A DNA stretch of 54,882 bases, counting the filler, from Circinaria calcarea (lineage: Eukaryota), in the NCBI GenBank assembly GCA_051942165.1. It is 2 parts of 2 records of this genome, joined end to end, with 100 filler letters (N's around TTAATTAATTAA, not from the genome) between each part and the next. Parts side by side here need not be neighbours in the genome. Positions count along the whole stretch, not along the records: positions 1 to 27,470 come from JAVECS010000066.1; 1 more part is not named here. One strand, given 5' to 3'. The notes under the pieces are model-generated. The model worked only from the letters and a program-made list of their open reading frames with translations. It ran no database searches and was not told where the DNA came from. How positions within the stretch are numbered: position 1 is the first letter of the stretch; each line of letters starts with the position of its first letter. Positions 150 through 27,570 of the stretch are shown here, piece after piece. The position numbers were made by a program, and so were the translations under genes.

Positions 150-233
150 CTTCGGGGGTTCGAATTTTCGGAGGTTCGGAGATTCGGAGATTCGGAGGCT
201 CGGGGGTTCGGAGTCGGGGGTTTAGATGCTCGG
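150..233. repeat. Imperfect 8-bp tandem repeat (TTCGGAGR/TTCGGGGG units)
   Basis: Read directly: ttcggagg ttcggaga ttcggaga ttcggagg ctcggggg ttcggag... Confidence 0.85.
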
Positions 234-4400: not shown

Positions 4401-7400
4401 AACCATTATATCAACGCGGTGTAGTAGGGTATCATGCCACTTAGGAGGGCAAACCGGGCCTATCAAAATTAAGTATTCGCGCAACTAAATTTAAAAATAT
4501 CATCGAACAGCTAATACTGACCATGCCCGAGCTCAAGAGCTTTCTTAATCTCCACCGACTCATATAAAGAGGGTCTACTGAGCCGCGTCGCCGGATTGCG
4601 GGAAAAGGCGTCTAGAAGATTAACAAAGCTACGCATCAATATCTCGCCATGGTTAGCGGTATAGAGCTCCTTTTGGACTGACATCCTGATTAGAGCGTCT
4701 CCACCGGCATTATCGACCACGTCAATACTGAGGTCATATGCAATCTGTCCGCCGTCAAACTCGGTCCATTCACAGTCACATCCGCAGAAAGTTCGACTTT
4801 CTGAGATACCTTGTCGGTAGTTAAGGAACACCTGGAAAAGGGGACTCTGGCTGGACGATCTAGGAACGTTGAGCTCATTGAGTAGAACGTCGAATGGTAC
4901 TTTAGAGTTGGCAAATGCTCGCGTCGTTTTACCCTTAGTTTCCTTGACCGCGTCCGTGAACGTCTGTGTAGTAGCTTGGCTTTTAAAGCGGATAGGAAGG
5001 AGGTTCAAGTAACATCCCAAGCTCAGGAGCACATCGCTTTCATTTCTATTTGCATCGGCGATGCCGATACACAGGTCATCGATATCCAAAAATCGAAGAA
5101 TCAGGGTCTTATAAACTGTCAGGTAGAACTGAAAAGGAGAGACCTTGAGTCTTTTGCAAGTTTCGTGGATTTGCGCGGACAAACCAGTGTTGACTCGATG
5201 AGATACCAAATGGGATCCATATTTTGTCAATGTCACGCGGGACTTTAACGTGGATAAAGGTAGGAGAGGAATCGGTGGAGGAGTATCGGGGAACTCTTTG
5301 CGCCAAAACGCAAGCTCTTCAGTCCATTTTCCGTCTCGATAGTCTCGCCTTTGTCTCGAGGCAAATTCCGGGTATTGGAGGACATGTGCGTTTGCAGAAG
5401 AAGTGAGATTATAACTCTTCTGCAGGTCAGAAAAGAATATCTCGAAACTAATGCCATCCATATTGATATGATGATATCCGAGCAGAATTTGGTGAGAATC
5501 GGGAGATAATGAAAGTAAAATTATTCTCATTGTCTGCCCTTTCTCAAGGTCATAGATATGCTCTTTCAAGCGAACATACTCTTTAGTAATCTCGCTGCTG
5601 TCAGAGATGTCTTTTCGCTCTAAGCGGAGAACCGAAGATTCAAGAACTCCCTGCATTGCTTGATGGTTTTCATCGGTAAAGAAGCGTGTTCGTAGAGATT
5701 CGTGACGTTGTCCAACAGCAGCAACCGCTTGAGCTAACTGATCCACACGGATACTCCCTTTCAGATGAATAGACGTGGTAACATTGAAGGTTGCCTGATC
5801 TTCGAGGTAGAACTTCAGGAACCAAAACCGCGATTGGCTAAAAGACATGGGCACCACTCTCTGGGCACAGCTCTCAGAGCCAGATGGTTTTGCAATCTCT
5901 TCGAATGAGGATATCGACAAAGAGGGAGAAGCCGCATTGAACGCGTCAACAGTGCTGCTATCGGAAGATGAAGCTGGGACTGAACGAACGAATGAAGACG
6001 TTTCGTGCACCGACGTAGTATTTGGCTTCTCGTTTGGCTCACGGCTTTTTAGTACTGGTTCACTAGTGATAGCAACCAAGCTTTCGCCTCGAGCTGGTTC
6101 TGAAGTTTGTTCCTTCACAGTACTGCTATCGAACTCTTTCATCGCGGAGTTGATAGGGATTTCCCTTGATCGAGGCACAGGTAGTGGTTCAGGCTTCTCA
6201 GATTCTATTGTATTATATGTTGAGCTGGAACCTGTGGTTACGTTTGGAATAAAGGCCGGAGGAAGTAATTCCTGGGCGCGGTGTAGCAGTTCACCAATGG
6301 TAGCGCCACTCAAGATCTTAAGGACGGGCATATCGACAGTCAACTCCTTGAGAAACCACGATCTTACATCAATTGCAACCAGTGAGTCAATACCCAGCGC
6401 GTCTGCACTCTGATTGATCATGTCTACGTCGGAAGCAGTTTGGAGTGTAGTTTGCAATCGTGCAATGAAGGAAACTTGAAAAGCGTTAGCTTAAGAATGG
6501 AGGATGTGATAAAGTAGACTTTACCTCTCAGGATCTTAGAGACCTCGTCGGGGGTAATGGCTTTTAGGAGTTGGTTTTTCACGGATACAGTAGCGGTAGT
6601 ATTGCCAGCCCTACTTAAATTGGTGGTATTTCGTTGAAAGACTAGATGCGAGAACAACGGGTTCTTATACCAAGTGATCTTCTCGTCCTCGCCTGCATAG
6701 AGAATCTGTAAACCTGTTGAGAACTCGGGGTTGGGTCCTGGTCGTGGAGGACTGGCTATAACTGCCTCAGCGAAAATCTGGTGGAAGTCCTGCTCAGACA
6801 TCCATAAATTGCCTACTTTGCGGAGGAACAGCTGTTGTGTTAGGGTTAATTCCCGTGTAACATACCCATTACCTACAATAGCGCCAACATAGACTGTTGA
6901 CGCTGCGAGGCCACGCTTCCTCCGTTGAGCAGCGAGACCAGCAAGGAACATGTTTGCCGCTCCATAAGCAGATTGACCTGGATTACCGGTGATGGAAGCC
7001 ATGGAAGATAGAAAAACGAAGAAATCGAGTTTGCTATCAGCAAATATCTCGTCAAGATAGATGCTTCCATCCACTTTTGGGTTTAATACTTTCTGCAATG
7101 TATGCATGTCCAGATCGAGGAACATGGTATCATGAAGGACCATAGCTCCATGGCAGACTCCAGCAATGGGCGGAAGATTACTGCAAATTTGCCGGTAGAC
7201 TGATTGAAGAGAGTCACGGCAAGTAACGTCACTAACATCGATTAGTTCATATCCCAGAACTGTTATGGCTATGACGGAGATACCTGAAATGTATTCTAAC
7301 CGTAGCACCAACTTTCTTGAAGCTGTTTAGCCATCTGGGATCGACTTTAGGATTGCGACTGGAAATGACAATATACCGCGCGCCGTGTGCGATCATCCAT

Positions 7401-10400
7401 CGGCAAAGCGAGAGGCCAAGCCCGCCTGTCAGGCCGACAAGCCAGTAGGTCCTATCCTTTTTGAACATGGGCTGCATGTCGACAGCCTCATATTTGACCG
7501 GTATATTAGAAGATGTCACCCAATTGACTAGCACCACGGGCCTGCTGGTCGTCGCTGTGTTTGGGATCATATTGAGTGACACCAGAGGGACATCCTGTAC
7601 CTCGGAAATGGGAAAGCTTGCAAGATGCATACGAGACGTTTCGAGTACATTCTCGATCAAACCGTTTGATATGGATGAACTGATGTACGCTGCTTGATGC
7701 GTAAGCATATCAAGGGTCTCAATACCGCACATGGCTGGAACATGGCTTGCGATACGGGTAGATGTGCTATTGTCTTCCCAGGACACAAAGCGTGAGAGTT
7801 TTGCCGGTAATGTTATCTCAATCATACGTTTGGTTGCGTGGGGATGTAGATATATCCATGTATCGTCTCTAACATCAGATTTAGTTGTGAGGAAAACCAG
7901 ACGTATATCGCGCGTGGCTGCTATGCTAACAAGTATAGCTGCAATGGTTTCGTTAGGCTCGAAGACCGCCAAAACATCTCCATTAGAGAGGTCAAAGAGA
8001 ATGGCTAGAGCAAGTAGGTGGTAGAACATGGCAAGTAGATATTCGACTGATTGCTCAGAGGAAAAGGGGCAAGCACTGGTCCAGGACCTAGAGACGTTGA
8101 GTAACGATGATTGGGATGTTGATAAGGTAATAAGCTGGTCGCCCGTTTTGGTGTTGATACCCAAAAGAAGAAACAAATAACCACTGGATCCGAACCTTAC
8201 AGATCTGAGAACCGAATGACTGATACAAATGTCGACACTATCATTGAGGCTTGTTTCTTGGAGTGGAACCAGGCCCGATTCATCTTGCATACTATATGTA
8301 GTACCCGAATATGATATTGTGATTGGAGAAATTTTAGGATCCATTTCTCTAGTGATGAGCCGACGTGATGAGTTATAACGATTATTCTGGGGTTTGCTGA
8401 GCTGTAGGCGAGGGATTAGATGCTGGCCTTTCTCGATTGCTATTTCTGGTTCAGTTGACCAGAGAAGATTCTCGAGTCGGCCTTGTTCCTCCCATACATC
8501 TGCCGCCACGAATCTGAGCATTGCTTCAGCCAAAATCGCTGCATCAGGTTCTTCGTCGAGATTGAAATCCATGTATTGGAGCCGGAGATGAACCATTTCT
8601 AATATTAGAGTTCGTCCAAAACCAACGACCATTTTCGCGTATGGATCAGCCTTTTTATATCCATGAGTAATCCATAGGACGTTCTTAGACCTCTCGAAAA
8701 GTTTTTGGAATCCTGCCAACTTCTCTTTGGTCATAGACTTGAAGATAGACTCATCGAGATCTTGCATGCACAAGACACTGCCTGCAAAAGAGAGTTCTCT
8801 TCTGTTCAGATCAATTAGCGATTCAAAATGCGTGATTTGACCACAATGCGGAGTCAATAAGGCTGTTACTATGGCAATGTATTGTGCAGTGTGCGGAGTG
8901 CTGCCACCAATGATCGCCAGCTGCCGGATGCTGAGGTCTGGTTCCGGCAGAGAGAGTGGGGTACGGAGGAAATTTACTCGATCATCCAAAGCCTGACTAG
9001 CAATGACAGACAATGGAAGTGGTAAGGCTTTGTGGTGCGGGACTATAGCGTCGATGCCAGAGAAGCCCGTCCTCTTTAACAATACTTCCCATTCCGCCAG
9101 ACCAACGCAAGGGGAAAATGTCCGTCCATCGTCGGTACCAAGCCACCATCCAGGTAGGCCACCAAAGATGAAGCCAAACCTCATCGGATCGTTATCAGTG
9201 ATTTCTAACAAAAGCAAATACCCACCAGGCTTGAGTAAACGCCGAACATTCTTCATTGTCTCTTCGAGATTAGCCGTGGCATGAAGCACTAGAGAAGCAA
9301 TGACCACATCATAGCCATACTCGGTATATCCTTGTTCTGTGACGGCTTTCTCAATATCAAGAGCTTTAAAGGTCATTTTTGATTCATATGCCTTGAAAAC
9401 TTCCTTCGCCTTTGTAAAAAAGCCAGTTGAAATATCGGTGAACGTATATCTTCTCCACATTAGTATCGAATAATGAAAGACGACGGAGGTGAGATACTGA
9501 CGAAGAGAAAGCCCCATCGAGTTGCTTCAAAATTGCTTTAGTCGCTCCACCAGTACCCGCACCTAGGAGAGAAGTTAGATTTCTGCTCACTAAGGAGAGC
9601 AGCGACGTTCCCTACCGATCTCCAATACATTCATATGAGGGTGACGGTGACCTATCTGTCTTGCCATGCGGGTCAACTTGTGCAGATACGGAGACATCCC
9701 AAGCGCCTGGACGTAGAAATCGTTCAACATGTTATCTTGAATCATTGGCTCCAACATTGTCAATTTGCCTAGGATCACTGCAGGCATGTTCTCACCAACA
9801 GCGTGCATTATCCTCAGATCAATGCTGTCGGGATGACTGTTATAAACTGGTGAGTCTAGATCCGAGACAGTAATGTAGTGGACGGATTTGAAATCACTGT
9901 ACCCCATTGTGTATACAGATAGCATATTGGATTTAAATGTAAACATACCTTGTGATGATATCCAGGATCTGATCATGAGTATCATTAATCCATTCCTGTT
10001 TTACAAATGGATGGTCTCCACTTGCGACGCGAGAGCACATATAGTTTATGTAATCAAACAGCTTTTTATGGTGCCATTCGCACTTCCCTCGATCTTCTGG
10101 GGTTGTTAATATCTGCAGATTTCGCAAATAGAAGTACGCAACCCGTTCGAGGGCAAAGCCAAGGTCATAGTACTCTTCAGTCTCCTCGAGGAGAAGCGAT
10201 TTGCCATGAGGGGAAGCAAAGTCCCAAACCGCCTCGGAAAAAAGCAGGAGATCGGTTGCCGCGGTGGCAGGCACCATAGGCTTGGTGTGCATTCCTTCGA
10301 GTTGGAGCATAGCATGTTGTCCCTCCTCAGGGTAGATATCAACATCACCATCAATCTGTGCCACGAGATCTTTACTAATGATGGAGCTGAAACGCAACGA

Positions 10401-13400
10401 TAGACCCTGGTCTGCATTGGACAGACATAAAGATGGATTAAGCCTAACTCGATCAATGCCCGTGGGAAGTTGAATTGACCGGAGCCTGCTATCGCCAGGA
10501 AAACAGTACGCGAGAAGAATTGATTGGATCGCCCCGTCCAATGCAGCCGGATGAATCATAAGCTTCTTGTCTGGATTAGTGCTAGCAGGGACCGATATTA
10601 AGCCTGTTGCTGTGTTTAGTTTTCTCTCGAGGGATGATAATGCCTTGAATGACCCTGAGTATCCGTACCCGAACTCTCCAAAAGATGTATAGAATCGTTC
10701 GGATTCAACCTCCATTAGTGCAAATTCCGGATCAGGCTTTGGCGGCAAAACAGCCAATTCTGTCTCTCCAAAGATTATTGTGATCTGCCCGTCGGCATTA
10801 AGCGATATGGGTCCTAATTCTTTGCTCGCAGCAGAGAAGAAACCGAACTTGGCACTCAGCACATCAGCTTGACGTTGAATATCGGTGAAGGCAAAGATTG
10901 TTTCGACTCCAGAATCTTCGTCATCAAATATCAGCGCTTGGCCAATTGTAAGATTCTCCAGCTCGATTAGCTTGATTGGCTCGTCTTTGGCAATTTCTCT
11001 GGCGGCCTCGATAGCTGTTGAGAGGTAACCCGCACCAGGAAAAACCATTTGGCCTTGGATACGATGGCCAGTGAGCCATGGCACCTCCCTTGGTAAAAGA
11101 AAGTTGCGCCAGCGGACCTGGTGATCTGAACTATCGTAGCATTTAGATCCAAGGAGCTCATGGGTAGGGTCCACTCGCCCGCGGAAAGCCTTCGAGATAT
11201 TAGATTCGTGCCAAAAGACTCGCTCATGGTCCCAAGAGTAAGTAGGTAGATTCTTCAGAGGGTTAGGAGCTTTCGCAGCTCCAACCAACATCTTATCGTA
11301 TCGAGCAAAATCGACAACTGATCTGCCAAGGGAAGACCATACAAAACCCAGACTACTTGAGAGTGCCTCAATGTCATTAGTGCCGCGATTTAAGACTCCC
11401 GTATAGAGAATTTTATGGCCTAAAACGTCTTGAATGATCTGAGTTGTTGGTCCTTTAAGGGCTGCATGGGGTCCTACTTCTATAGCAACATCAAAAGGCC
11501 CATGCTCGCCGATAGCATATTCAACTGCCTGCGAAAATAAAACCGGCGAAACCAGGTTGCTGTTCCAGTAGAGGTCGTTCATGTTTTCATCGACTTCAGT
11601 AATATCCTGTTGATAAACACTGGAGATCCACGAACACTCGAAACCAGGATTTACCGGACGTTGCACCTTAATGCCGCATGCTCGAAGAGACTGTATATAT
11701 GACGCGGAGCAGGCCGCCATGTGATGTGAGTGATAAGCCTTGTCAACTTTCAGCAGCCGAGCGAATCTCTTCTCCTCTTGAAAGACAAGTCGCACTTCTT
11801 CAATCGCATCTGCATCGCCGGAGATTGTTACACTGGCTCCCGAGTTGCTGGCTGCAACACAAACGCGTCCTTGAAATTTTCGTAGTCCGCAAAGTTCTTG
11901 AGCATCCTCATAAGAGGTGCCAACAGCAACCATAGACCCAGTTTGTCCTTTCGGACCTTGGGCTAAACGGAGATGGTAACCGCGATAATAAGCAATGCGG
12001 ATAGCATCATACGCGGAAATATACCCGGCGGCATACGCAGCACCAATTTCCCCCGAGGAATGACCAATAACCGCTACAAATCCGATGCCAGCACTTCGTA
12101 AAAGATCCACCAGTATTATCTGAACCGCTGTACAGAGCGGCTGAGACAGCGCCGCTTCACCAACACGGGAAGTTTTTACGCCCGCTAACAGCTCTTCCTT
12201 GAGTGACCAAGTCGGGCGATCTGCCGGTAGATCAGCCAGACTTTGCTCAAGACTTTCCACAATCCTCTGGACTGCTGGAGACACCATCAATTCCGCTCCC
12301 ATGCGAGCCCACTGTGCACCCTGACCAGTGAAAATACCCAGAATCCGTGGTGCAGGACCGTCTAAATTAGATCGCGGGCTCGTTAAAATAGCTGTAGTGC
12401 CTTTCCCCTCCACGAAAGCGTCGAGCTGAGAGCAAAGACTGTCGACAGTTAGAGCTGAAAAGGTAGCTTTGGTTGGGAAAGTTGTCCTTCGGGTGTTGAG
12501 GGTCCACGACAAATCACGAAGGTTCGTGGATTTCTCAGCCTTCAAATATGCCGAATAAGCGGCTACTGTTCTTGTGAGAGAGCGTTCCGAGATGGCTGAG
12601 AAATTAAAAGGCGTAAAGACACGGTTGTCGACGGGGGGAGGAGAAGGAGATCCCGAAACTACGGGTGGGTAACTTTCGAGGATTGCGTGGGCATTTGCAC
12701 CTCCAAATCCGAACGAATTTACACTGACTCTTCTTGGAGAATTCTGTTCGATTGCAGGCCAAGGCTGGGCAGTAGTGATGATTTTCAAGTGATCGTAAAA
12801 TGGCTTCACGGCTGAGGCGAGATTATCAAAGAGGCAGTTCGGTGGAATAACACCATTCTGTAGGGCTAGCGAGGCCTTGAGAACGGCAGCCAATCCAGCA
12901 GTGCCCTCGGTGTGCCCGATTACAGTCTTGATAGAGCCCACAAAAAGAGTATCGAGATTCTTTGACTGTGTATTAAGCTCGTTTTTAGCTGTGGATCGAG
13001 GTCCGAAAAAAGCTGTGCTGATAGCTTCACTGGAAGATAAGTTAGAGACAGATAAGTGCTGAATTCATATAGATACCGAACTGACCTCTCCACGGGGTCT
13101 CCTGCAGGTGTCCCCGTGCCGTGAGCCTCGAAATATTGCGGGCGATCGCACTTCTTGCTCAAATCCAAACCTGCTTTTGCATAAGTAGCCTCGATGAGAG
13201 CAGCTTGCGCACTTGCGCTCGGCATCGTGATTCCCTTCGTCCTTCCATCTTGATTAATGCTCGTCTCTCGAATGATACACTCGATATGGTCGCCGTCCTC
13301 CAGCGCGGCACTTAAAGCCTTCAAGACTACAGAAGCAATACCATCTCCTCTAGCATAACCATCTGCCTTCTCATCCCACATCCGAGACCGTCCGCTGGGA

Positions 13401-14083
13401 GATAACATTTTCAGCTTACTCTCAGCAATATATTGCTCCGGTCCAAGAAGAAGGTTTGCCCCCGCTGCTATAGCAACGCGAGATTCTCCTGATCGAAGCA
13501 ATTGAACAGCTTGATGAACAGCAACAAGACTGGAGGAGCAAGCAGTATCAATAGTCATTGATGGCCCCCGCCAGTCAAAGAAATATGATATGCGATTAGA
13601 CATTATACTTCGCGCCGTACCTGACGCAAAATAGGTGGGAAAATAGTTAGTATCGCGGCCTAAAAGATCGGCATAGTCGGCACACATTAAGCCCACGTAT
13701 ACTGCAGTCTGAGAACCTTGTAGCTCATCAATAGTGAGTCCAGCGGCTTCAAGACTTTCATAGACTGTTTCGAGAAGAAGTCGTTGTTGAGGATCGATTG
13801 AATGGGCCTCGACCGGTTTAATCCCGAAAAATTGAGCATCAAAAACACGATGGTCCTCTGTAAGGAAGTATGAGTGTCGGACGTTACTGGTCCCATGATG
13901 CATATTGTCTGGATGATAGAAACCATCAACGTTGAACCGATTAGGAGGAATTTCGCTTTGGACATCAGCAGGGTCACGCAGCAACTCCCACAATTTCGAT
14001 GGCGTGTTAGATCCGCCGGGAAAACGACACCCACTACCAATGATGGCAATAGGCTCATTTCCTCTTGCGAGTTGAGGTGCCAT
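1410..14083 (-). CDS. Hybrid iterative PKS-NRPS, KS-AT-DH-cMT-ER0-KR-ACP-C-A-T-R (multi-exon)
   Basis: Consecutive ORFs joined by GT-AG introns. [46 protein letters not shown] and HPAALD; cMT LEIGAGTG (split by an intron) and [83 protein letters not shown]. Confidence 0.97.
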
Positions 14084-14410
14084 GATGAGTATGCTTGGGG
14101 TAACGACTTATGGTTGGCGACTTGCGCGTCAAGGGCAGGAACGATAAAGTCTACCGGTGGCACTGTTATGGTGAAAATGAATGTCTCCTGCGGGACGAGC
14201 TCGAGCCGTATCTTAAGGCCACCTTTACCTATGACTCAATCGTGAGGTAGTATCGGATAGTGAGATATCGGAGGTCAAAGGCGACATGAGGATGCTTGTT
14301 GAATATTCACAAATGTCAACGTCAGTGCCCCCTGGCTTATGCCCTCTGGAATGTTGTGCCATCCGACAAAATCCCTTCGGGGATCCAGAGCGGCTCCGAG
14401 TTCAGAGTGT

Positions 14411-14420
14411 CCGAGTCCGA
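14411..14420 (-). promoter_or_regulatory. TCGGACTCGG motif upstream of PKS-NRPS (putative Zn2Cys6 site)
   Basis: ccgagtccga on +, about 330 bp upstream of the ATG; identical copies lie upstream of the other two locus genes. Confidence 0.65.
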
Positions 14421-14825
14421 GAGCCCTAGGCCTCGCAGGGATTCCTATTCCGATGCCCCCGATGCAGGGCATGATCAGTCTCTGCGTGCGTACTGGGATA
14501 CGGACATGTCATCGCAAGGTCCCTCCGACCGACCATGTATATTCGTCACTCACCAGCATACCGTCGGCTAGCTGTCAACAAGACTTCGTGCCAACATATA
14601 GAAGCCCTCCGGTGTACAGAACGTAAGCGGGTTTCAAGGGCTAAAATAAGCAGGCTTGGCTGAATTCTAACTTTTAGCCTTTAATCAAATAGAGTTTCCA
14701 AGTTGAGTAGGAGGCAAGGCACGTAATCATAACATTCTCTGTAAATTGCTAGATCTCAAACACATTTCGAGGCCTTTCTGCCCTCACGCAAACCCGAAAG
14801 TCCCAACTACACTCGTAGGGCGTGT

Positions 14826-16595
14826 TCAAGGGTCCCACTTTCTCGACTTGAACGCAAATTTCGTCTCGAGCCCCGGAGCCTGTGAGCCATTTGGTAGCGA
14901 GACCTTGGCAGGCCTTGACTCACCCTTTGCAAACATGAAATCGTAGTTCATAATAAGATGGGCCAGGCCGATCTTAATTGTACTGTTTGCAAAGAGACGT
15001 CCTGGACAAGCCATACTCCCATCGCCCCAACCCGGTGACTCAGCTCCCAAGCTTGCAAACTGGTATCGACTCTCCTTTCCGGGCTCCTTGCGGAGCTCAT
15101 GATAACGCATTCCGTTATACTGCTCGGGTTTGTCCCATAATTCAGGGGAATTATGGATATGGTGTGCATCGACACAAACAATTGTCCCAGCAGGAATTGT
15201 AGGGCCAATCGAGAGCTTTGTCGGGCTTCTTAGTAGACGGTAAAGGACGACTGTCTGTTGCATCAGAAAGTCACATCCGATTCCGACGTTCAAAGTAGAG
15301 AAAGCACCTACGGAGACTGAAGGGATTTGTTCGCGACGACTCTCTCATAACACTATCCATTTTCCTTAGCTCAGCTAAATGGGTCTTGGGCAGTTTGCCA
15401 TCCACCACCACTTCTCTCAGCTCCTGGCGCAGAACTTCGATCAACCCCGGATTTGAGGCCAGGTCGTTCATAATGTTATAGAAAGTGGCGGCGGTGGAAG
15501 GGGTTGATTCAAAGGTGACTATGATATAGTCGTCTGTCAGTTGATTTAGGGTTGCTTCGCCTGGCTTGTAGCGGGACATAAGGGCGGCTGTGAAGGGAAC
15601 TTTCCCGTCCTCGGTCAACTGTAATAGACCTCTCTTATCATCGCTATTCATGTATTGTTCCATATCTTTTTTCACGACCGGTGCAAGAACACTCTTCATT
15701 CTTCTTCTTGTTATCACGGCGGGTAAGAAGATCAAAGGAGCCGCCAGAGGTTGTAGCATCCGGGGAATGACACTAATGGCAAAAACACCAGCCATAACGG
15801 CCATTGGAAACCGCTCCACAAGCTTAAGCCATTTTTCGTTCTTCCCCAGCTCTCTACCGACGAATGAGCAAGCATTTGTAGTAGAAACCATTCTCATTAA
15901 AGCAGGGAATAACTTGATCTCCTTCCACTGCGGGCAATCACCAATTACAGCATCGGCCGCCGATCTAGTATCCTCCTGCCGTAAAGGAACCTTGATGGGA
16001 ATACTCCGAGCCAAATCAACACCGATCGTTTTCAGCAGCGCCGATGTTTCTTTACCAGCAGTTGTCCAAGTTCCAAAGTATATCTTATCGAAAAAGTCTT
16101 GGGCCGACGCGATATGGGATGGCAGTCGCTTGATTTCGTCAAATATAGCCGAAGGATAGACGACATATGGAATTCCTTGTGTCTTGATTATATATGGAGT
16201 TTCGGGATACTAGATCAACTTTAGGCTCAAAATATCATCGAGGACTATGAAGCAGGCCCACCGACCTTTGCTGCGCCTTGGTCCAAAATCTGTTGGAAAT
16301 CAAGCTTATGCTGCTTTGAGCCTCCGACAATTGGTAAGTTCAACTGTTTGAGAGTCTTCGGCTGCATGAAGAAGCGCCAAACAGTAAACAGCCCTACTAT
16401 TAGAGCTCCGGATGCCGCGAGTACCAGAGTCAAAGTTGACAGCTGCCGTAGGAAGTGTGCGGCTAGGAATTTCGTTATTTGCCATTTTGTTAGTCGCACA
16501 GGCGCAAGTGATTGTCGAATAATCGCAAATTGCTCGAATACATCGTACTCGAGTACTTTGAAGAGCAGGTGCTCAAGTATATTGTGGCTAGACAT
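14826..16595 (-). CDS. Cytochrome P450 monooxygenase (secondary-metabolism type; 3 exons)
   Basis: N-terminal hydrophobic anchor; K-helix ESSR in KMDSVMRESSRTNP; PEQYNGMRY (PERF equivalent); heme motif WGDGSMACPGR; introns at about 16211-16266 and 15250-15310. Confidence 0.95.
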
Positions 16596-16800
16596 TTTGA
16601 GAGGTTAAATCTAAGGTAGCAATAATTAACCCAATTAGCCAAAAGTAGGACGATAGCTGTAAAACACAAAGCTTTGGCGAAGATCGATCAAGCTTGCAAT
16701 TCCTCGTGGCTTATGGCTCGGCATCGTTCTATGCTCTTGGATGTTCCGATGCAGGCCTGTTCCGGTGCACCGAATCTCGTGTAATAGCTTAACGTGGCCT

Positions 16801-16810
16801 CCGAGTCCGA
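16801..16810 (-). promoter_or_regulatory. TCGGACTCGG motif upstream of P450
   Basis: ccgagtccga on +, about 205 bp upstream of the P450 ATG. Confidence 0.65.
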
Positions 16811-18188
16811 TTGGCAGCCAGTGGTTCCGGCAAAGGCGCAACATCCGCCGAAACCCCGAAGTTTCTTTGGATAGTAAGTCTGGTCCTGAAGACAAAGGTA
16901 ATGTACATTAGTAGCTATACCGATGATAGCTCACTGTGAAGCTTCTCTTTCACAGCCACAATTCTGGTGCCTGTACGCCACAACTCTTTCTCGTAGGAGT
17001 GCGTAAACGGCGTCAAGTCTGAAAACTACGCTGATAAGGTCCTAAGTCGACCAGATCCAGCTTCGTCATGTATAGCAGTAGCTAGCCAGCGGGGTGTTCA
17101 GCTCAAGATGTCTGTTTCTTGGAGTCGCGTTAATTGGATTGTCATTGAGTGGCAGTATGACTCGGCTCGCGTATCTCGAAATCAACACCTCAGGCATTTC
17201 AGCCATATTTTAGGAGGCTGTACTTTTGGGCTAGTTTAGATGTTTCGTATTCGACCTTTGTTAGCCATCATGGTGCCAGCGGATCATCCCATGAGAGGTG
17301 GAGGGCGACGAGAGAAGCATCGGCTACCCACTTGCAACCTTGACTAAATAAGCTAAGTCGGCTTTAATTTGCACATCACCTTGACCCCCTTCTGCAATTA
17401 CCAACCGCCTTTATATTTTACTTATCACTCTATATACTCTAGCAGCTTTATTATTTGCTTCGTGGTTACGCTTGCAGCGTGCTTCGACTACGCTTTCGAT
17501 TATGTGAAAGGGTAGAGCTCTTGTTCCAGCCTGGGACTCAATGCTTTCTCTCACGGAGTATGATTCCGATCTTTATTCTACAATCGACATTTACTGACTT
17601 ATCGGACTTTCTAAGTCTTACCTATGCTCCTATTGCATCTTAACCCGGTCACTATGGGCATGCCGGTGGGGTAGAATCTGGGCTATAGTATGGAGGATGA
17701 TGTTTTGGCTAGAAGTGAAACTCTCAGCAAAGGCTTCTACGCGTTACTAAGCACTCAGTACGTATGTGAATAAGCTTCATGCTACGTGACTGGGCTTTAA
17801 TCTGGGTACAAGATGCTATTGTAGATATTATTGCCAGCGTCACCGCGGTCTGTGTGCTACGCGGGCGGAGCAGGAGATGGAGTGCCTTTATCTCGTTCTT
17901 GTCATGCTCTTAGCAATGAAAGGCTGCCCTTGCAAAGAGCTACATTCCTAGAGAAAGCTGTGTATAATCTTGCAAGCGTGGTGGTACAACGTTATCCTCG
18001 GTTTCTGACGTACTTAGATTTTCTCGTCCTGCTTTAGGCCTACAGCATGTTCTGTGGGCAGATATGCGGTACAGCATCCCATATACTGTAGTGCACCGTG
18101 TATGCTACCCCGAATGGCTCCGGCTGACACGCTACCGAGCCTTGCACGGTAGGTTGAGAAACGGCGCCCCGAAAATTAAGTAATCAAC

Positions 18189-18198
18189 TCGGACTCGG
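18189..18198 (+). promoter_or_regulatory. TCGGACTCGG motif upstream of HR-PKS
   Basis: tcggactcgg about 140 bp upstream of the ATG at 18338. Confidence 0.65.
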
Positions 18199-18337
18199 TC
18201 AACTCCAGTCGGCCAGCTAGTGGGCAAGCAGATGGCAACAAGTCTTTGTTAGTTGGTTGATAACATGTGCACCAGTAGTCTGGCTTTTTCTTCTTTGAGT
18301 TTTTTTGAACAACGCTCTTTGCATACTACATTTCAAC

Positions 18338-21300
18338 ATGGCCATAACAGAACAAGCCGGCGTCGTTAGCGGCCAGCCCCAGCAGCCGTCCAACGAGGCT
18401 CTCGAGCCCATTGCCATTGTGGGCATGGCCATGCGGCTTCCCGGTGGGGTACGTAATGCAGAAGAATTTTGGGATATGTTGGTGAAAAAGAAGGATGGTC
18501 TTTGCAGAGTGCCCAAAGATCGCTACAATATAGATGGATTCTATAGTACTACTACAAGGCCAGGGACCTTGCAAACAACTGAGGGTTACTATCTTAAAGA
18601 TGTAAACCTGCAGCACTTTGATACCTCGTTCTTCTCAATAAGCAAGAAGGAGCTGGAACGGCTCGATCCGCAACAGCGCCAGTTATTGGAGGTTACCTGG
18701 GAGTGTATGCAGAACTCGGGAGCAACTGGCTGGCAAGGCAAGAACATTGGCTGCTTTGTTGGCGTGTTTGGTGAGGACTGGCTCGATCTCAACGCCAAAG
18801 AGACACAGCACGTGGGAGGGTACCGTGTCACGGGATACGGCGACTTCGTTCTAGGCAACCGACTATCTTATGAATATAATCTGCGTGGCCCAAGGTAATA
18901 GCTTTCTTTGCTTCCTCTCGCAACGTTGCCTGTGGTAACTTGGATATAGTATGACCGTCAAGACCGGCTGTTCTTCATCCTTGATCTGTTTACATCTTGC
19001 CTGCGAGGCTATTCGCTCAGGTGACTGCTCGTCTGCTATCGTTGGCGGTACCGGCGTAATAACTTCGCCAACGATGGCCCTTGCATTAACTGATCAAGGT
19101 GTTCTATCCTCGTCTGGAAAGTGCAAGTCCTTCGATGCATCTGCAGATGGATACGGTCGTGGCGAGGCTATCAATGCAATTTATATCAAAAAACTAAGTG
19201 ATGCTCTTCGAGATGGCGACACCGTCCGCGCTGTCATTCGTTCTAGCGCGACGAATTGTGATGGCAGAACACGAGGGATGCTTAGCCCGAGTTCCGAAGC
19301 CCAAGAAACTCTGATTCGACGTGCTTACAGCGTTGCTGGTATTTCTGACTATTGCCGGACAGCCTTCGTCGAGTGCCATGGTACAGGTACTTCTGCTGGT
19401 GACCCGCTGGAGTGCGCAGCAGTTGCGAATGTATTCGGAGAGGGGGGCGTTTGGATCACTTCGGTCAAACCAAATGTTGGACACTCGGAAGGCGCTGCTG
19501 GTATCACGAGCGTGATTAAGGCAGTGTTGGCTCTTGAGAACCAAGTGGTCCCACCCAATATCTTTTTCAAGGATCCCAATCCCAAAAGTATGTCTGGCTC
19601 TCCTCAAAGTTCTATGCTGACGCCTTTTCTCCAGTACCATTTGAAAAGGCTAAACTACGCGTTCCTACCAAGGTCGAACCGTGGCCCCAGGGTCGCTCCG
19701 AGAGGGTAAGCGTGAATTCTTTTGGAATTGGGGGTGCGAACGCCCATGTGAGTTGCGAATTCAGTGCTATCGCATCATGGTGTGTTTAATGCTTCAAGGT
19801 CATCATCGAATCGTCTCGCGAAAACAATGCGATAGCTACCTCTTTGGATGATAGCAACATCACCCGCCGGGACCATCCCCATCTTCTTCTCTTTTCCGCC
19901 AGTAGTGTTCCGTCGCTAGAAGCAAGTCTTGAAAAGTACAAGAGCTATATGAAGAGGTGTTTGCCGTCTCTAAATGATCTATCCTACACTTTGGCAATTC
20001 GACGAGATCATCTCTTATATCGTGCATACGCTGTCACGAACTGCCCATCTTTCCTAGAAGGCTCCCCTATTCAAACGGCAGGCTCGATATCACGCATCGT
20101 CTATGTTTTTACTGGCCAAGGAGCCCAGTGGCCGGAGATGGGAAGGTCTTTGCTCGATCACAATCCTACATTTCGAGATACAATTAGGAAGTTAGACAAG
20201 AGTTTGAAAACACTTTCCGCTGCATTAACCTGGACTATTGAGGGTATGAAACGTACTTCTCCAAAGTTAAAAAATAGTTGGTTCTGACTCGACATAGATG
20301 AGTTGCGTAAACCTGCTTCAACCAGTCAAGTCCAGAGGGCTGAATTCTCTCAGCCACTCTGCACCGCAGTCCAGATAGCATTAGTCGACGTTCTTCATAA
20401 GTGGGGTATTGAGCCAGGTGGAGTTGTAGGCCACTCATCCGGTGAGATCGCTGCTGCCTATGCCGCTGGTGCCATCACCGCAGAAGCAGCGATAGCTACT
20501 GCGTCCTTCCGTGGCATTACCACAAAGCACTCTACCAAGATCGGCGCAATGGCAGCAATTGGGCTTGGACGTAAGGAGGTTTCAGGATTTTTAAAACTTG
20601 GTGTCGTCATTGCTTGTGAGAATAGTCAGAGCAGCGTGACCCTCTCTGGAGACTCACAACAAGTCCAAGAAGTGGTGGGACAAATAAGGAAAGAACGGCC
20701 AGATGTCTTAGCTCGCATCCTGCTTGTCGAAAAAGCATATCATTCTCGTCAGTTGCTGGTTTCTTTTGTCGAAGGTCTAGCTGTTCACTAGTGTCCTCAC
20801 AATTTCTAAAACCATTGACAGCAATACTGACATCTTACTTAGATCATATGAAAGAGTTTGGGGAAAATTATCAAGAACACCTCGAGTCCGTGGTTAAATG
20901 TGTTACGCCGAGAGTTCCTTTCTATTCTAGTGTCATGGGCCGCAAGTTATCTGATACTGATAGGCTCGGGCCTTTGTATTGGCGGCAAAACCTGGAAAGT
21001 CCTGTCTTATTCGATTCAGCTATCCGAGCGGCCCAGTGTGATCAGAAGGGGAATACACTGTTCCTCGAAATTGGACCTCATCCAGCACTGAAAGGCCCCT
21101 TGAAGCAAATCCTTCGGGAGGCTGGTCAACCTGGCGACGTTCACGTGGGGTCGCTCACCAGAGGCAACGATTGCGAAGATAGTCTTCTCCAGCTAGCTGG
21201 AAATCTTTTCCTGAATGGGGTCACACTCGACTATAGTATGATTTCGTTACATGGAGCAGTTCTAACTGATCTACCGGGCTATTCCTGGGTTTACGATATG

Positions 21301-24300
21301 GAGCACTGGAATGAGCCCCGCCTGGCACGCGACTGGAGGTTCCGTGAGCATGCACCCCATGATCTACTTGGCACCGCAGTGATCGAGGGAAATAACGAAC
21401 CTAGATGGAGAAATATGCTGTCAATCGACAGCGTTCCCTGGTTAGCTGATCATGTAATTGCGGATCAGGTACTCTTTTGTGGTGCCGGCTATATTGCTAT
21501 GGTGGGAGAAGCACTTCGCCAAATCTCGGGAGTCGAGGTCTACAGCCTTAAACATATCTCTCTATCCTCGGCTCTTATCCTTGAGCACGGAAAACCTATA
21601 GAAATCTCGACCAGTCTCTCACATGCTCATTTAACAACTTCACTTGACTCTCCGTGGTTTGAGTTTCAGATCGCTTCCTACAACGGTAAAACCTGGACAA
21701 AACACGCTTCAGGTCAGGCTAGATCATTGGTTGATAAGTCGGTCAAGATTGATGCTCCTCGGCCAATTCTATCCTTGCCCAGGAAAGTATCTACTATCGA
21801 GTGGTATAACGTCATGAAACGAGTGGGGCTCAGCTACGGGCCAGCGTTCCGTCAAATGGACCACATTTCAGCTGCAACTAATAAACAAGTAGCAGTCGCA
21901 ACTATTTTCAACCCTGAAAGACCCGGAGAGTCATCATATGCCTTGCACCCGGCAACTATTGATCAGTGCTTCCAGCTCCTGACAGTTGCTGCATTTCAAG
22001 GTCAAGGACGAAAATTTCAGCAACTTGCGGTTCCGACCTATATCGAGGAGCTTGTGATTGTCCCTGGTACACAAGAAATACATGTTGAGGCAATCTCAGC
22101 CCTGTCTATCAAAGGAGCTTTCACAGGAGACGTATTGGCGCAAAGCATCGAAGGTACTCTTCTGCATATGAAAGGATTTAAGTCATCCCCACTTGAGACT
22201 GGGAACTCAGCGGTCGATGACGTCCGCCTCATCACACAAATCGAATGGAAGATTGATAGCGACTTTTGCGAACTGGACAAACTTATGAAGCCCTGCAAGA
22301 TATCTAGGAAAGAATGGCCTCTTCTAGAAGAACTTTTCTTACTCTGTATTATGGATCATCAGGATCGGATCAGTCCCTCAGTGAATACTCCAAATCATCT
22401 TCGCAAGTTTCTTAACTGGATGCAGATGCTAGAAAATTCTGTGGAGTCTGGGACTTACAACGTTCTTTCTGAAGTCAAAGCACTCCGTGCACTAAACTCG
22501 TTTGAAAGACTGGCTCGCATTCAACATATCGTCACGGAGGTGCAGATGACCGAGTTCGCTGTAGCCGCTGTCGCTATTAAGCGGTTATTCGACGCGGCTG
22601 GTTCAATATACGAAGGTGAAACAAATCCCTTAGATCTGTTGATGAAAGATAACCTGCTTCCTGATCTTTACACTGCCGTAGACTCGGGCAATTACAGTGA
22701 AGCCTTCAAAGTGCTCGCGCACAAAAAGCCGCGTCTTAGGATACTTGAAGTCGGCGCTGGAACAGGTGGTACTACCGCAAAGATCTTTGAGGCTCTAGTA
22801 TCAACCTATGCAGAACGAATGTACGCAGAGTACACCTATACGGACATCTCTTCCGGATTCATGACATTTGCGAAAGAAAGGTTCAAGAATCATGAAAATG
22901 TCACATATCGTGTCCTTGATATTAGTCAAGATCCATCCGAGCAAGGGTTCGAGAAAGGGGCTTACGACCTCATCATCGGCTCCAATGTAGGTTATCTTTC
23001 TACCTTTCTAACAACTATATGCCTAGTCTGATATTTACGGTATATTAGGTTGTCCATGCTACTCCGTCTCTACAGATGACCTTGAAAAACCTGCGAATGC
23101 TACTACACCCCGGAGGTCACTTGTTTCTCCAAGAGCTCTGCCCCGGTAGGTCGATTAGTTATCGATATGGTGAAATTTGGTATCTAACATTGATATAGAC
23201 ATGAAGTGGATTAATTATATTATGGTAAGACCTTTGTGATATTGGAGGAAATCTCGATATTATAAAATGCTTTAAAGTTGAAAGTTTCCTTGATCGTTAC
23301 GCTGACATCTCATTCTAAGGGATTCCTTCCCGGATGGTGGCTCGGACATGACGATAATCGCTCCAATGAGCCTTATATAATGCCGGCCCGTTGGTCCGAA
23401 GAACTTCTCTCCGCAGGATTTTCGTCCCCGAATGCTATCGTATACGATGACATTAAGCCATATCACCTCAGTGCAAACATTATAGCCTCGCCGGCAAGTG
23501 AGGCTATACTTCCCAATAGAGTCACATTGCTATCTCACTCCGAAAGTGGCCCAGGAGTCCATGAGACTAGAGCATGCTTTGAAGATTTTGGCATTGCGGT
23601 CGATATTTGCCTTTTCGGTCAGGTCCCTCCCCATTGTCAGGATATCATTTCGCTCCTTGATCTTCAAGAACCCATATTACATAGTATCTCTGAAGAGGCT
23701 TTCTCAACTTTCACAAAATATCTACTTGCACTCGACACGTCAATGCTTTGGGTCACTCGGGCTTCTCAAGTCAATTGCAAGGATCCTCGAGCAGCCATGA
23801 TACTTGGCATGGCGAGGTCGGTTCGAAACGAGCTCTCACTTGGCCTCTTCACTGTAGAAGTCGATAGCGTCACACCTACACCAATGGTAGCAAAGGCCAT
23901 ATTCGACATTGTTCGAAGAATTCATTCGCCAGAGAGATGTGACAAAGAAATGGATCCTGATTGGGAATACGCAATTGTGAACAGTGAAATCCAAGTGCCC
24001 CGGTTGCACTGGGAAGCTATGAAGTACTCCATGGCACAACGCCCAGGCGAGAGCCTGAGCGCCAATAAACGTATCACTGTCGGAAAGACTGGCCTTTTGC
24101 ACACGATGCAATGGAGCGAAGAGGATTTGGAAGGCCCTAAGGATAATGAGGTAATCGTGAAGGTCAATGCTGTAGGGTTAAACTTCAGGGTATGTTTTTT
24201 CAAGTCTTTTGAGGTCTTCGCTAATATCTCTCGAGGATGTACTTATTGTTATGGGTGTTATGGACGATAGCCCTACTGAGCTCGGCCTTGAAGGCTCTGG

Positions 24301-26500
24301 AGTTGTCCAAGCTATAGGTCCCGAAGTTAAACACCTAAAGGTTGGCGATCGTGTTATGTTCATGTCTAGTGGATGCTTCACTACCTGCAAGATTCTAACA
24401 GAGGTGGAATGTGTAAAGCTTGATGCCACTCTCAGTTTTGAGAAAGCTGCAGCTTTACCATGCGTTTACGGAACAGTCATTCTAGCGCTACTCGAGAAAG
24501 GTAATTTACAAAAAGGCCAGGTACTAGAATATGATCTGAATGCTTATAAGAATCTTGCTGAATCTGATATTTAGACGGTTCTTATCCATTCAGCGTGTGG
24601 AGGCATTGGGCTCGCCGCTATTCAAGTCGCCAAGATGATGGGAGCCGTGGTAGGAGTATCATGTCTTCGAAGGATAACTGCTAACAAGAAAAGGTTTACT
24701 GCACGGTTGGAAATGAGGAGAAAATCGAGTACCTAATGAAGAATTATGATATCCCGCGAAAAAATATCTCTAATTCTCGCGACTTGTCATTTGTTGCCGA
24801 TATTATGTGCTTAACTAATAATAGGGGTGTCGATATAGTGCTTAACTCACTATCTGGAGAGCTTCTACATGGGTCTTGGCAATGTGTAGCTGAATTTGGG
24901 GCAATGATTGAGATTGGGAAACGGGATCTAAGAGGTAGAGGACACCTAATCATGGATGTTTTTGAGGCCAATCGGACATTCTATGGCGTGGACCTCTGGC
25001 AGATAAGCCGAAAGCAACCCGAGAAAGCAAGATCGTGAGCTATCACCCACGTTAATATTAGATGTATGGCTGATTAGTTCGTTATGAAGACTAATGCAAA
25101 AGTGCATGACATACCTCCAAGCCGGCGCGATCGAACCAGTCGTGCTTGCAAAGATATTTGAAGCCTCTAGTATCCAAGATGCATTCAGATTCATGCAAAA
25201 AGGGCAGCACATTGGAAAGATCATCGTTAGCATGCCGAACGAGTCAAGAGATCTTGGATGCGCTGCAGTCCCTATTAAATTCAAATTGCGATCTAATGTC
25301 AGCTACTTATTGGTTGGAGGATTGGGTGGCTTAGGACGAGCTGTCTCCACATGGATGGTTGAGAGTGGTGCACGTCATATCATATATCTATCGCGATCGG
25401 CAAAGGAGACTGGGGGTACACATTATTTTCTCAATGAGTTACGGAGCCAAGGATGTCAGGTGCAAATGGTCGCTGGCAGTGTGAGTAATTTTGCTGACGT
25501 TGAAGCGGCGGTGAAGAAAGCTTCAATGCCGATCGCTGGAGTAATCAACATGTCTATGGTTTTGAAGGTAGAGAGATTCTCTCCATTAAAATGTCATTGC
25601 TGACCATCTAAGGATGTCTCCATCCGTGAAATGACCTTTGAGCAGTGGAAGGTTGCTGTGGAACCTAAAGTTCAAGGAACATGGAACCTACATCATGCTA
25701 TATCTTCAAAACTGGATTTCTTCATCCTATTCGCATCGTACAGCGGCATTGCGGGGCAGTGGGGCCAAGCGAATTATGGAGCCGCAAATACATTCCTCGA
25801 TGCTTTCGTACAATATCGGCACAGCAAGGGTTTAGCAGCATCTGTCATTGATGTCGGTATTATGGGAGATGTGGGCTTTGTTTCGCAGAATACTGATATC
25901 TTGGAACATTTCCGAACCTCGGGTATGCACCTTCTACGAGAACAAGATCTATTGGATGCCATGGTTCTAGCTATGAGAAGATCCCAACCGTGTTCAAAAG
26001 AAAGTCATACCACAAGTTACAACAACCCGAGTCAGATTATCCTAGGTTTCCGAACCACGAAGCCCATATCCGATCCAAATAATCGAGTTGCATGGAAGCG
26101 GGACCCTCGGATGAGTTTCTATCACAATCTCGACAGCTTATCGACTCTTTCTATAAGCACGTCATCATCGAATGAAGACTTAAAAGGACTTCTCGCGTCA
26201 GCAGTATCACAGCCAGTGGTCTTGACCCAAAGCGACAGCATTGAAATAATAGGTACATCGATCGCCTCGACACTTTTTGATTTTCTGCTCAAGCCACAAG
26301 AGGAGCTGAACTTGAACCAGTCGCTTAACTCCCTGGGTGTAGATTCTTTGGTCTCGATGGAGCTGCGTAATTGGATCCGTCAGCAGCTTGGTGTTGAAGT
26401 TAGTGTCTTGGACATTATACACAGCCCTTCGTTGCTTTGTCTAGGGAATATTGCTGGGGAGGCTTTGCTTGCTAAGTACCAAGTTGCTTTAACTGCGTGA
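18338..26500 (+). CDS. Highly reducing iterative type I PKS, KS-AT-DH-cMT-ER-KR-ACP (many introns)
   Basis: [43 protein letters not shown] and HPATID; c[54 protein letters not shown]. The introns inspected restore the reading frame. Confidence 0.96.
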
Positions 26501-27470
26501 GAACCGGCGTTGCCGAACCAGCCCAAAACAAGCGAATGTTATGATTGGAGCGCATGGAGAAGATGGCGGGGAAATAGCGCTAATTTGGTGCGCCTCTCGC
26601 TCCATATGTCAGCGATCCCCCGAGTATTCTTCCATGGAGAATACACGCGTACACATTTTTGCTGCCACATTACGCCTTTGCTTCTGGAAAACTTAATGCC
26701 CTCCGTGTAATGCTTCTGTTTTCTGTAACGTGTCAACCGCGCTCATGTTTCGGCAGGAGGCAGTACTTCTCAACGTCGGAGGAATTTATGGGGGCTGTTT
26801 CGGCAACTTGCTTTGGCTGGGGCCTTACTCCTTACTCCTGTTCCCAAGCAAGCGAGTCGGACTGGCGGATATGCATGCATGGGGTTTACTCGGAGGATAT
26901 ACGTGCACCCTTACTCTCAACGTCTTTCAATATAAGTTGGCACCTGCTCTTTATCTTTTCTCCCAGGGTTGGTTTACTTCTGATATGATTCAGTGGTCCT
27001 CAAGCATGACTTTCAATTGTACCACCACCTTCCTCCCCATATGCTATGCCTACACGGCGGTGATTCAACGTAGATGTTATGAGGATCCAGACGCGGTTGA
27101 TTCGGACCCTGTCGCAATATCGTTTTGAGTTCCTCAATATCGATGGCCTATTCCCAGCCGATCCTGGTCAGGGCATCCTTCCAATATCTCCTAAACTACA
27201 TATCCACGGGGTTAACAAATTCCTTATACTTGAACGGCAAGGAGTATGCTTGTCGCTACTTTGAACCGGGTTCCTTTAGGATGATCGATGTTGATCTGCT
27301 TATTATTTTCCTTAGTAACATCATTTTAGACAGAATTGTCAGCTGTTTCTATTTCAGCCTCGTCTTGGCAAGATCCCAAACGATGTTTTACCTGCAGGGG
27401 TTATCCTATCGATCATCAAGTGCAGTCGAATCCACTTTCTTTCGGGGTCTTTATCAGGGGACGCGTGGGG

Positions 27471-27570
27471 NNNNNNNNNNNNNNNNNNNNNNNNNNNNNN
27501 NNNNNNNNNNNNNNTTAATTAATTAANNNNNNNNNNNNNNNNNNNNNNNNNNNNNNNNNNNNNNNNNNNN
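27471..27570. other. Assembly gap / artificial contig linker (N44-TTAATTAATTAA-N44)
   Basis: Exactly 100 bp and symmetric; the central 12-mer puts stop codons in all six frames. Confidence 0.92.

Follow-up and report, generated by a model that had tools for sequence, protein, structure and literature searches.

Circinaria calcarea assembly GCA_051942165.1 contributes a 54,882-base stretch of fungal DNA (hereafter the window, by which the whole of the analyzed sequence is meant) in which three biosynthetic genes occupy the left half. They encode a polyketide synthase-nonribosomal peptide synthetase (PKS-NRPS), a cytochrome P450 and a highly reducing polyketide synthase (HR-PKS). A 10-bp word, TCGGACTCGG, lies upstream of each of them, and the subject of this analysis is whether this shared word is likely to be a regulatory site recognized by a zinc-cluster, Zn(II)2Cys6, protein. 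The start codons were set from the sequence together with homolog alignments, at 14083 (minus strand) for the PKS-NRPS, 16595 (minus strand) for the P450 and 18338 (plus strand) for the HR-PKS. The coordinates of the genes, of the three copies of the word and of the related half-sites are collected in Table 1.

Table 1. Genes, copies of the shared 10-bp word and related half-sites in the window.
Feature	Position	Strand	Context	Remark
PKS-NRPS gene	1410..14083	minus	KS-AT-DH-cMT-KR-ACP-C-A-T-R, by Pfam on pieces of the open reading frame (ORF)	presumed target 1
Cytochrome P450 gene, three exons	14826..16595	minus	kin to cytochalasan-type ffsD, phmB, ccsD P450s	presumed target 2
HR-PKS gene	18338..26500	plus	KS-AT-DH-cMT-ER-KR-ACP, by Pfam	presumed target 3
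Motif copy 1 (TCGGACTCGG)	14411..14420	minus	337-328 bp upstream of PKS-NRPS ATG	
Motif copy 2 (TCGGACTCGG)	16801..16810	minus	215-206 bp upstream of P450 ATG	CCAAT before it (gCCAATCGGACTCGGa)
Motif copy 3 (TCGGACTCGG)	18189..18198	plus	149-140 bp upstream of HR-PKS ATG	within two full ACTCGG hexamers (aACTCGGACTCGGt)
Six TCGGA half-sites, including copy 1	14362..14528	minus	PKS-NRPS orientation	all on the same strand
Extra TCGGA half-site	16745..16749	minus	between copy 2 and P450 ATG	in gCATCGGAACAT
One-mismatch copy (TCGGAGTCGG)	208..217	plus	in 8-bp tandem array 147-234	about 1.2 kb past PKS-NRPS stop

An exact search of the window showed that TCGGACTCGG has exactly three exact matches, where 0.08 would be expected by chance and none of 100 shuffles reached three. 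At all three copies, TCGGACTCGG reads along the coding strand of the gene that follows, all three upstream regions carry the word, and the 3′ ends of the copies lie 328, 206 and 140 bp before the respective ATGs. A preliminary description of this DNA had reported three identical copies in gene-wise orientation about 330, 205 and 140 bp before the ATGs, and these positions were confirmed. Within TCGGACTCGG, two TCGG half-sites stand head to tail in the layout CGG-ACT-CGG, i.e., as a direct repeat with a 3-bp spacer. The two CGG triplets are thus held at a fixed spacing in direct orientation, and a T precedes each of them in all three copies; this is the form of a zinc-cluster site, and in this respect the preliminary description was right to invoke spaced CGG triplets as a Zn(II)2Cys6 element. 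Zinc-cluster sites shared among the promoters of fungal gene clusters are textbook knowledge. A second 10-mer, CCTGCATCGG, is common to the upstream regions of the PKS-NRPS and P450 genes (14459-14468 and 16746-16755, minus strand), and GCATCGG occurs four times across the two intergenic regions; both words may represent variant half-site context.

The sequences surrounding the word bear on where it came from. No similarity was seen among the copies in the 60 bp flanking them on each side, and Tandem Repeats Finder found no array over the copies. A repeat-derived origin, which the preliminary description had named as a finding that would overturn its proposal, was accordingly not borne out, and an origin from a repeat or a mobile element was ruled out on the basis of the unrelated flanks. 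A related proposal is that the word arose by hexamer slippage or is the remnant of a decayed microsatellite, (ACTCGG)n or (TCGGAN)n, and has no regulatory role. Copy 3 does consist of two full ACTCGG units, and short tandem arrays of TCGGA-containing units are present at 147-234 of the window and at 19781-19796 of L004, one of the metagenomic comparator loci described below. This proposal is nevertheless highly improbable, given that the three sites themselves show no array and that three independent events would have to have produced one identical 10-base word in each of three promoters but at no other place in the 55 kb, which would still call for selection. Rfam gave no match in 14000-18400, and none of the 11 largest intergenic ORFs (60-107 aa) had a Pfam family, so that an RNA gene or a small protein gene in the intergenic regions was rejected.

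The number of copies is a different matter from their location. TCGGACTCGG was picked post hoc and 172 strand-collapsed 10-mers reach at least three occurrences somewhere in the window; three copies alone therefore mean nothing, and the preliminary estimate of about 0.1 expected copies, while close to the 0.08 computed here, overstates the case. It is the location of the copies, and not their number, that carries the significance. When the intergenic regions 14084-14828 and 16596-18337 were pooled (2,487 bp), TCGGACTCGG was the sole 10-mer with three occurrences, and any such word appeared in only 11 of 2,000 dinucleotide-preserving shuffles. In a promoter test using the 500 bp upstream of each ATG, set in gene orientation, a 10-mer common to the three regions arose in 2 of 20,000 shuffles when the same orientation was demanded and in 5 of 20,000 when either was allowed; in addition, any word of at least seven letters that recurs in all three upstream regions with the same orientation overlaps the TCGGACTCGG site. 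Together, these results support TCGGACTCGG as a non-random element common to the three 5′ regions.

The half-site core is enriched in the same DNA. TCGGA ranked first among 499 5-mers in the cluster intergenic DNA, with 14 occurrences against 3.62 expected, a count that none of 500 shuffles reached. Five of the 14 fall inside the three copies of TCGGACTCGG, and the other nine still exceed the 3.6 expected. As a control, 12,678 bp of non-coding-like DNA were taken from the housekeeping half of the window; here TCGGA was found 20 times against 24 expected and ranked 380 of 512; the enrichment therefore belongs to the cluster promoters and not to the intergenic DNA of the organism. The densest 750-bp stretch for TCGGA in all 55 kb, 13851-14600, with nine matches against six in the next-best, is the PKS-NRPS upstream region. 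These counts bear directly on the possibility that the three copies are a coincidence, that is, chance occurrences of a CpG-containing word that do nothing. The post hoc choice of the word among many recurrent 10-mers and the lack of an exact match in the comparator loci are what such a coincidence would predict. We consider it quite unlikely, however, in view of the shuffle frequencies for the upstream regions in one orientation (2 in 20,000) and for the pooled intergenic DNA (11 in 2,000), and of the excess of TCGGA that persists once the five occurrences inside the copies are set aside.

TCGGA was also seen outside the promoters. The tandem array at 147-234 has an 8-bp period, about eight units with the consensus GAGGTTCG and five TCGGA, and it borders AT-rich DNA (230-1400) at the left edge of the window. 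The array might simply be a minisatellite, or its half-sites might serve a gene outside the window. Four further TCGGA, all on the plus strand, lie at 26776-27106 and 27571-28882, in the interval from the HR-PKS stop to a gene for a histone deacetylase (Hist_deacetyl domain) that begins near 27.5 kb, with runs of N at 27471-27514 and 27527-27570 over its 5′ end. Right of 26.5 kb the genes are of the housekeeping type, although the histone deacetylase might instead be tied to the cluster; they include, besides it, genes for an ING/PHD protein, for Nas2 and for a Rieske/pyridine-nucleotide oxidoreductase.

Domain content and alignments bear on the kinship of the three genes. The terminal reductase of the PKS-NRPS is NAD_binding_4 by Pfam, and its KS domain is 72% identical to the KS of the metagenomic cluster L003. 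For the P450, identity is 54% with proteins that bear the names ffsD and phmB and 46% with one called ccsD, while the closest database kin of the P450 exon are only 64-67% identical and are spread over several Ascomycota classes. A PKS-NRPS with a terminal reductase domain is thus combined with a CcsD/FfsD-like P450, and on these grounds both genes are classed as cytochalasan type. No database relative above 51% identity was found for the HR-PKS exon. Compared with L003, whose KS-AT junction is uninterrupted, the PKS-NRPS gene contains a frame-shifting insertion of about 56 nucleotides at 13031-13088, which is most simply an intron.

Neither a regulator gene nor the usual accessory genes were detected around these three. 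The Diels-Alderase, hydrolase, trans-acting enoyl reductase (trans-ER), MFS transporter and transcription factor of L004 gave zero tblastn matches in the window, in which no such Pfam families were found either; cytochalasan accessory genes, absent from the window, could sit past its left edge. Zn_clus of Pfam had no match in the 42 window ORFs scanned, no Cys6 signature was present in any of the six frames of the window, and the transcription factor proteins of L003 and L004 found no match there, in agreement with the preliminary description, which had placed the regulator outside the window. A close relative was recovered from a rock metagenome (run X1), whose contigs are colinear with the window over 9000-26430 and about 95% identical to it. 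The differences, counting both other letters and gaps, amount to about 4.8-5.6% (227 in 4,692 bp, 46 in 845 bp and 547 in 9,803 bp), and no copy of the motif is hit by an indel among the indels listed. The colinearity over the cluster indicates the existence of a sister strain or species in which the three genes are arranged alike. This relative has a 1-nucleotide insertion at 13037, within the presumed PKS-NRPS intron. The C. calcarea assembly and the X1 contig both break in AT-rich, repeat-bearing DNA just past the PKS-NRPS stop, and the cluster may therefore continue there. The X1 contig ends near window position 1278, in AT-rich DNA, and the AT-rich stretch downstream of the PKS-NRPS also holds a 12-bp tandem repeat, AGTTCGGCATAG, at 1153-1203 (4.2 copies, 92% matches).

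Comparator clusters were obtained by a scan of metagenome contigs with P450 alignment, which yielded four loci, L001-L004. L001 is a 1.3-kb fragment, and L002, being 99.9% identical to L003, was left out of all counts; a scan of prokaryote genome contigs for fungal contaminants provided no further comparator cluster. L003 and L004 are cytochalasan-type clusters, each with a PKS-NRPS, a Diels-Alderase, a P450 and a Zn2Cys6 gene, and L004 additionally has an MFS transporter, an alpha/beta-hydrolase and a trans-ER. The L004 regulator shows homology (37% identity) to a protein that carries the name ffsR, PF27599 being the FfsR-type middle domain. Coding DNA of the two loci is about 70-79% identical, and their intergenic DNA is not alignable by blastn. 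Intergenic words and dyads of L003 and L004 were enumerated without reference to the window. The results showed that TCGGA ranks second among the 5-mers in both (of 502 in L003 and of 512 in L004), with the overlapping TTCGG first in each, and that TTCGGA is the top 6-mer in the intergenic DNA of either locus. In the two loci combined, CGG-N3-CGG ranks third of 25,770 dyads, with 15 occurrences against 3.4 expected, a count that loses part of its force because 5 of the 10 L004 matches belong to a (CGGCTC)n microsatellite and 2 to tandem TCGGAT and are hence not independent. On these word counts, the promoters of cytochalasan-type clusters with a zinc-cluster regulator of their own are rich in the same CGG half-site and spacing.

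Individual sites in the comparators resemble those of the window in part. The L003 PKS-NRPS has a copy of TCGGACTCGG with one mismatch, in gene orientation, 259 bp upstream of its ATG; further intergenic one-mismatch copies are found upstream of the L003 regulator gene and, three in number, upstream of the L004 trans-ER. TCGGACT precedes the P450 ATG in gene orientation by 216 bp in L003 and by 116 bp in L004, the distance in the window being 206-215 bp, and an 11-mer identical to gCATCGGAACAT is present in the L003 PKS-NRPS upstream region. Related half-sites lie on both strands of bidirectional promoters in both loci. Words of 9 to 11 letters common to the intergenic sets are mostly chance words; only CAATCGGACT, CATCGGAACAT and GGTTCGGATAC touch the motif, of which CAATCGGACT is common to the P450 promoters of the window and of L004, and CATCGGAACAT to the window and L003. 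GGTTCGGATAC, an 11-mer that contains TCGGA, is found at 9133-9143 of L003 and 9418-9428 of L004 in opposite orientations, in Diels-Alderase/P450 intergenic regions that are otherwise unalignable. In the window, none of the 14 TCGGA is preceded by T (7 are preceded by A), whereas the preceding base is mostly T in L003 and L004, a difference that weakens the parallel, and the comparators therefore support a kind of site and not conservation of the TCGGACTCGG site.

The reading we favor, at a probability of roughly 60%, is that TCGGACTCGG is a cis-regulatory site common to the PKS-NRPS, P450 and HR-PKS promoters and would be read by a Zn(II)2Cys6 pathway activator encoded outside the window, plausibly one of the FfsR/CcsR type of cytochalasan-type clusters. 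From the sequence we infer the binding of a protein, the zinc-cluster identity of that protein and the co-regulation of the three genes. The preliminary description had already called the word a pathway-specific regulator site; that proposal is partly supported, by the non-random sharing of the element, by its zinc-cluster form and by the enrichment of TCGGA and CGG-N3-CGG in L003 and L004. The exact 10-mer did not turn up in L001-L004. Its suggestion that TCGGACTCGG could serve to find missing pathway genes elsewhere is doubtful for the word alone, given that some 45-60 chance copies are expected in an assumed 30-40 Mb genome at 0.08 per 54.9 kb; such a gene hunt would also need promoter position and nearby TCGGA half-sites.

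A shared promoter element need not be read by a zinc-cluster protein. It could instead be the target of a global or developmental regulator, or of a C2H2, bZIP or Myb-type factor recognizing GGACTC or ACTCGG. The shuffle statistics establish a shared element and are silent on its reader, no zinc-cluster gene was found in the window (42 ORFs, six frames), and the literature searched offered no characterized zinc-cluster reader of a direct repeat with a 3-bp spacer, all of which leaves room for a factor of another class. Such a factor is unlikely, however, since the enriched core, TCGGA/TTCGG, has the form of a zinc-cluster half-site, a CGG flanked by T, and since the same core is enriched in clusters that have a Zn2Cys6 gene of their own; a general factor, in particular, fits poorly with a core that is not enriched in the housekeeping non-coding DNA of the window. 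The CreA consensus is SYGGRG and the Gcn4/CpcA consensus is TGASTCA; sites for these two regulators were rejected, as neither consensus fits TCGGACTCGG. Alternatively, the word could act at the RNA level as part of the 5′ untranslated regions of the three mRNAs, e.g., by being bound by a protein that recognizes RNA. An RNA element, unlike a DNA site, has to be on the coding strand, and all three copies are; their distances to the ATG, 140-337 bp, could fall within long leaders. We nevertheless hold a transcribed element to be very improbable: the same orientation at three sites has a 1 in 4 chance and carries little weight, a pyrimidine-rich tract lies between the site and the ATG at the HR-PKS gene, such a tract being the usual place of fungal transcription starts, and the related half-sites of the L003 and L004 bidirectional promoters occupy both strands.

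Returning to the zinc-cluster site, several observations weigh against it. The cognate Zn2Cys6 gene that would be looked for in or beside the cluster is not in the window, and exact TCGGACTCGG is in none of the four comparator loci. L003 and L004 are related to each other and hence are not two fully independent tests, and the excess of copies of the 10-mer with at most one mismatch in L003 is only borderline (3 against 0.88 expected, reached by 13 of 200 shuffles). TCGGACT shows no excess over whole loci, whether in the comparators (3 against 2.0 and 2 against 2.5) or in the window (7 against 6.9). The HR-PKS promoter is the poorest of the three, with one tandem site and no further TCGGA within 500 bp, and homologs of the P450 and the HR-PKS in three named genomes lie on differently sized contigs, so that linkage was not seen; this is weak evidence that the P450/HR-PKS pairing is not general. 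Finally, no characterized reader was found for a direct CGG repeat with a 3-bp spacer, and the spacer is 5 bp for TerR, one of the regulators compared below, and 3 bp in the window.

If the zinc-cluster reading holds, one DNA-binding domain would sit on each TCGG of TCGGACTCGG, with two monomers arranged head to tail as for TerR. The tandem word would then be a high-occupancy target, and single TCGGA half-sites nearby could add to its occupancy, especially the six upstream of the PKS-NRPS. In this way the PKS-NRPS, P450 and HR-PKS genes would be switched on together by a regulator from outside the window. TCGGACTCGG is the only link in hand between the HR-PKS and the PKS-NRPS; the oxaleimide pathway is a known case of a PKS-NRPS and an HR-PKS working together. 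A more far-reaching proposal, which we regard as possible but rather doubtful, is that the so far uncharacterized FfsR/CcsR family binds head-to-tail TCGGA with a 3-bp spacer, that in this fungus an unlinked regulator brought the HR-PKS, which elsewhere has no linkage to such clusters, into the PKS-NRPS regulon, and that the motif would mark a collaborative two-synthase pathway and, together with half-site clustering, could trace its scattered genes. The kind of control element is ordinary, yet no description of it for cytochalasan-type clusters was found in open-access text, and the 3-bp direct spacing is unusual. If real, the site would offer a testable handle on the switching-on of an uncharacterized, probably silent PKS-NRPS/HR-PKS pair, a first candidate for the word that regulators of cytochalasan-type clusters recognize (TCGGA in direct tandem), and a 3-bp direct repeat to join the known spacings of zinc-cluster sites. 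Even then, the understanding of such regulation would be unchanged.

Known zinc-cluster systems provide the frame for this site. For the regulators of cytochalasan clusters, the FfsR/CcsR type (named as in the database sources), no published binding motif was found in open-access text; over-expression of ccsR and pyiR is mentioned (PMC9074748), and neither "motif" nor "binding site" occurs in that source. The likeness lies in the homologous clusters L003 and L004, which encode an FfsR-like regulator and whose intergenic DNA is enriched for the TCGGA core of the window, unlike which they have such a regulator gene; from this enrichment we infer a link between the FfsR/CcsR family and TCGGA. In general, zinc-cluster proteins recognize CGG half-sites that are arranged in inverted, everted or direct repeats (PMC12501005). 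In the aflatoxin and sterigmatocystin clusters, the sites of AflR are TCGN5CGA, given as TCGGN3SCGA (PMC12501005), and they share with TCGGACTCGG the first half, TCGG, the 3-bp spacer and the recurrence across cluster promoters. The AflR half-sites are inverted, however, whereas those of the window are direct, and TCGGACTCGG is thus not a site of the AflR type. It is a feature of AflR itself that two zinc-cluster domains occupy two close CG half-sites without a coiled coil (PMC12501005), and turning its sites to direct CGGN3CGG left two AflR domains unable to bind (PMC12501005). When five spellings of CGG-N3-CGG were searched for in open-access text, they were found in a single paper, only as this non-binding mutant. 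In the terrein cluster of Aspergillus terreus, a TerR monomer binds TCGGHHWYHCGGH, in which the T that precedes CGG is important, and a second monomer goes to the 3′ CGG in a direct repeat, the more so if a T precedes it (PMC4360782). The spacer between its CGG triplets is 5 bp and a 4-bp spacer is not recognized; each of the promoters required for terrein synthesis carries one site or more, and three are present in the promoter that is driven most strongly (PMC4360782). TerR is encoded inside its own cluster and its binding was measured, whereas the site of the window is a candidate read from the sequence and stands there without a regulator gene. The two systems are nevertheless alike in the arrangement itself, in that TCGGACTCGG joins a T-flanked 5′ CGG to a second, T-preceded CGG in direct orientation, and does so in the promoters of a polyketide cluster.

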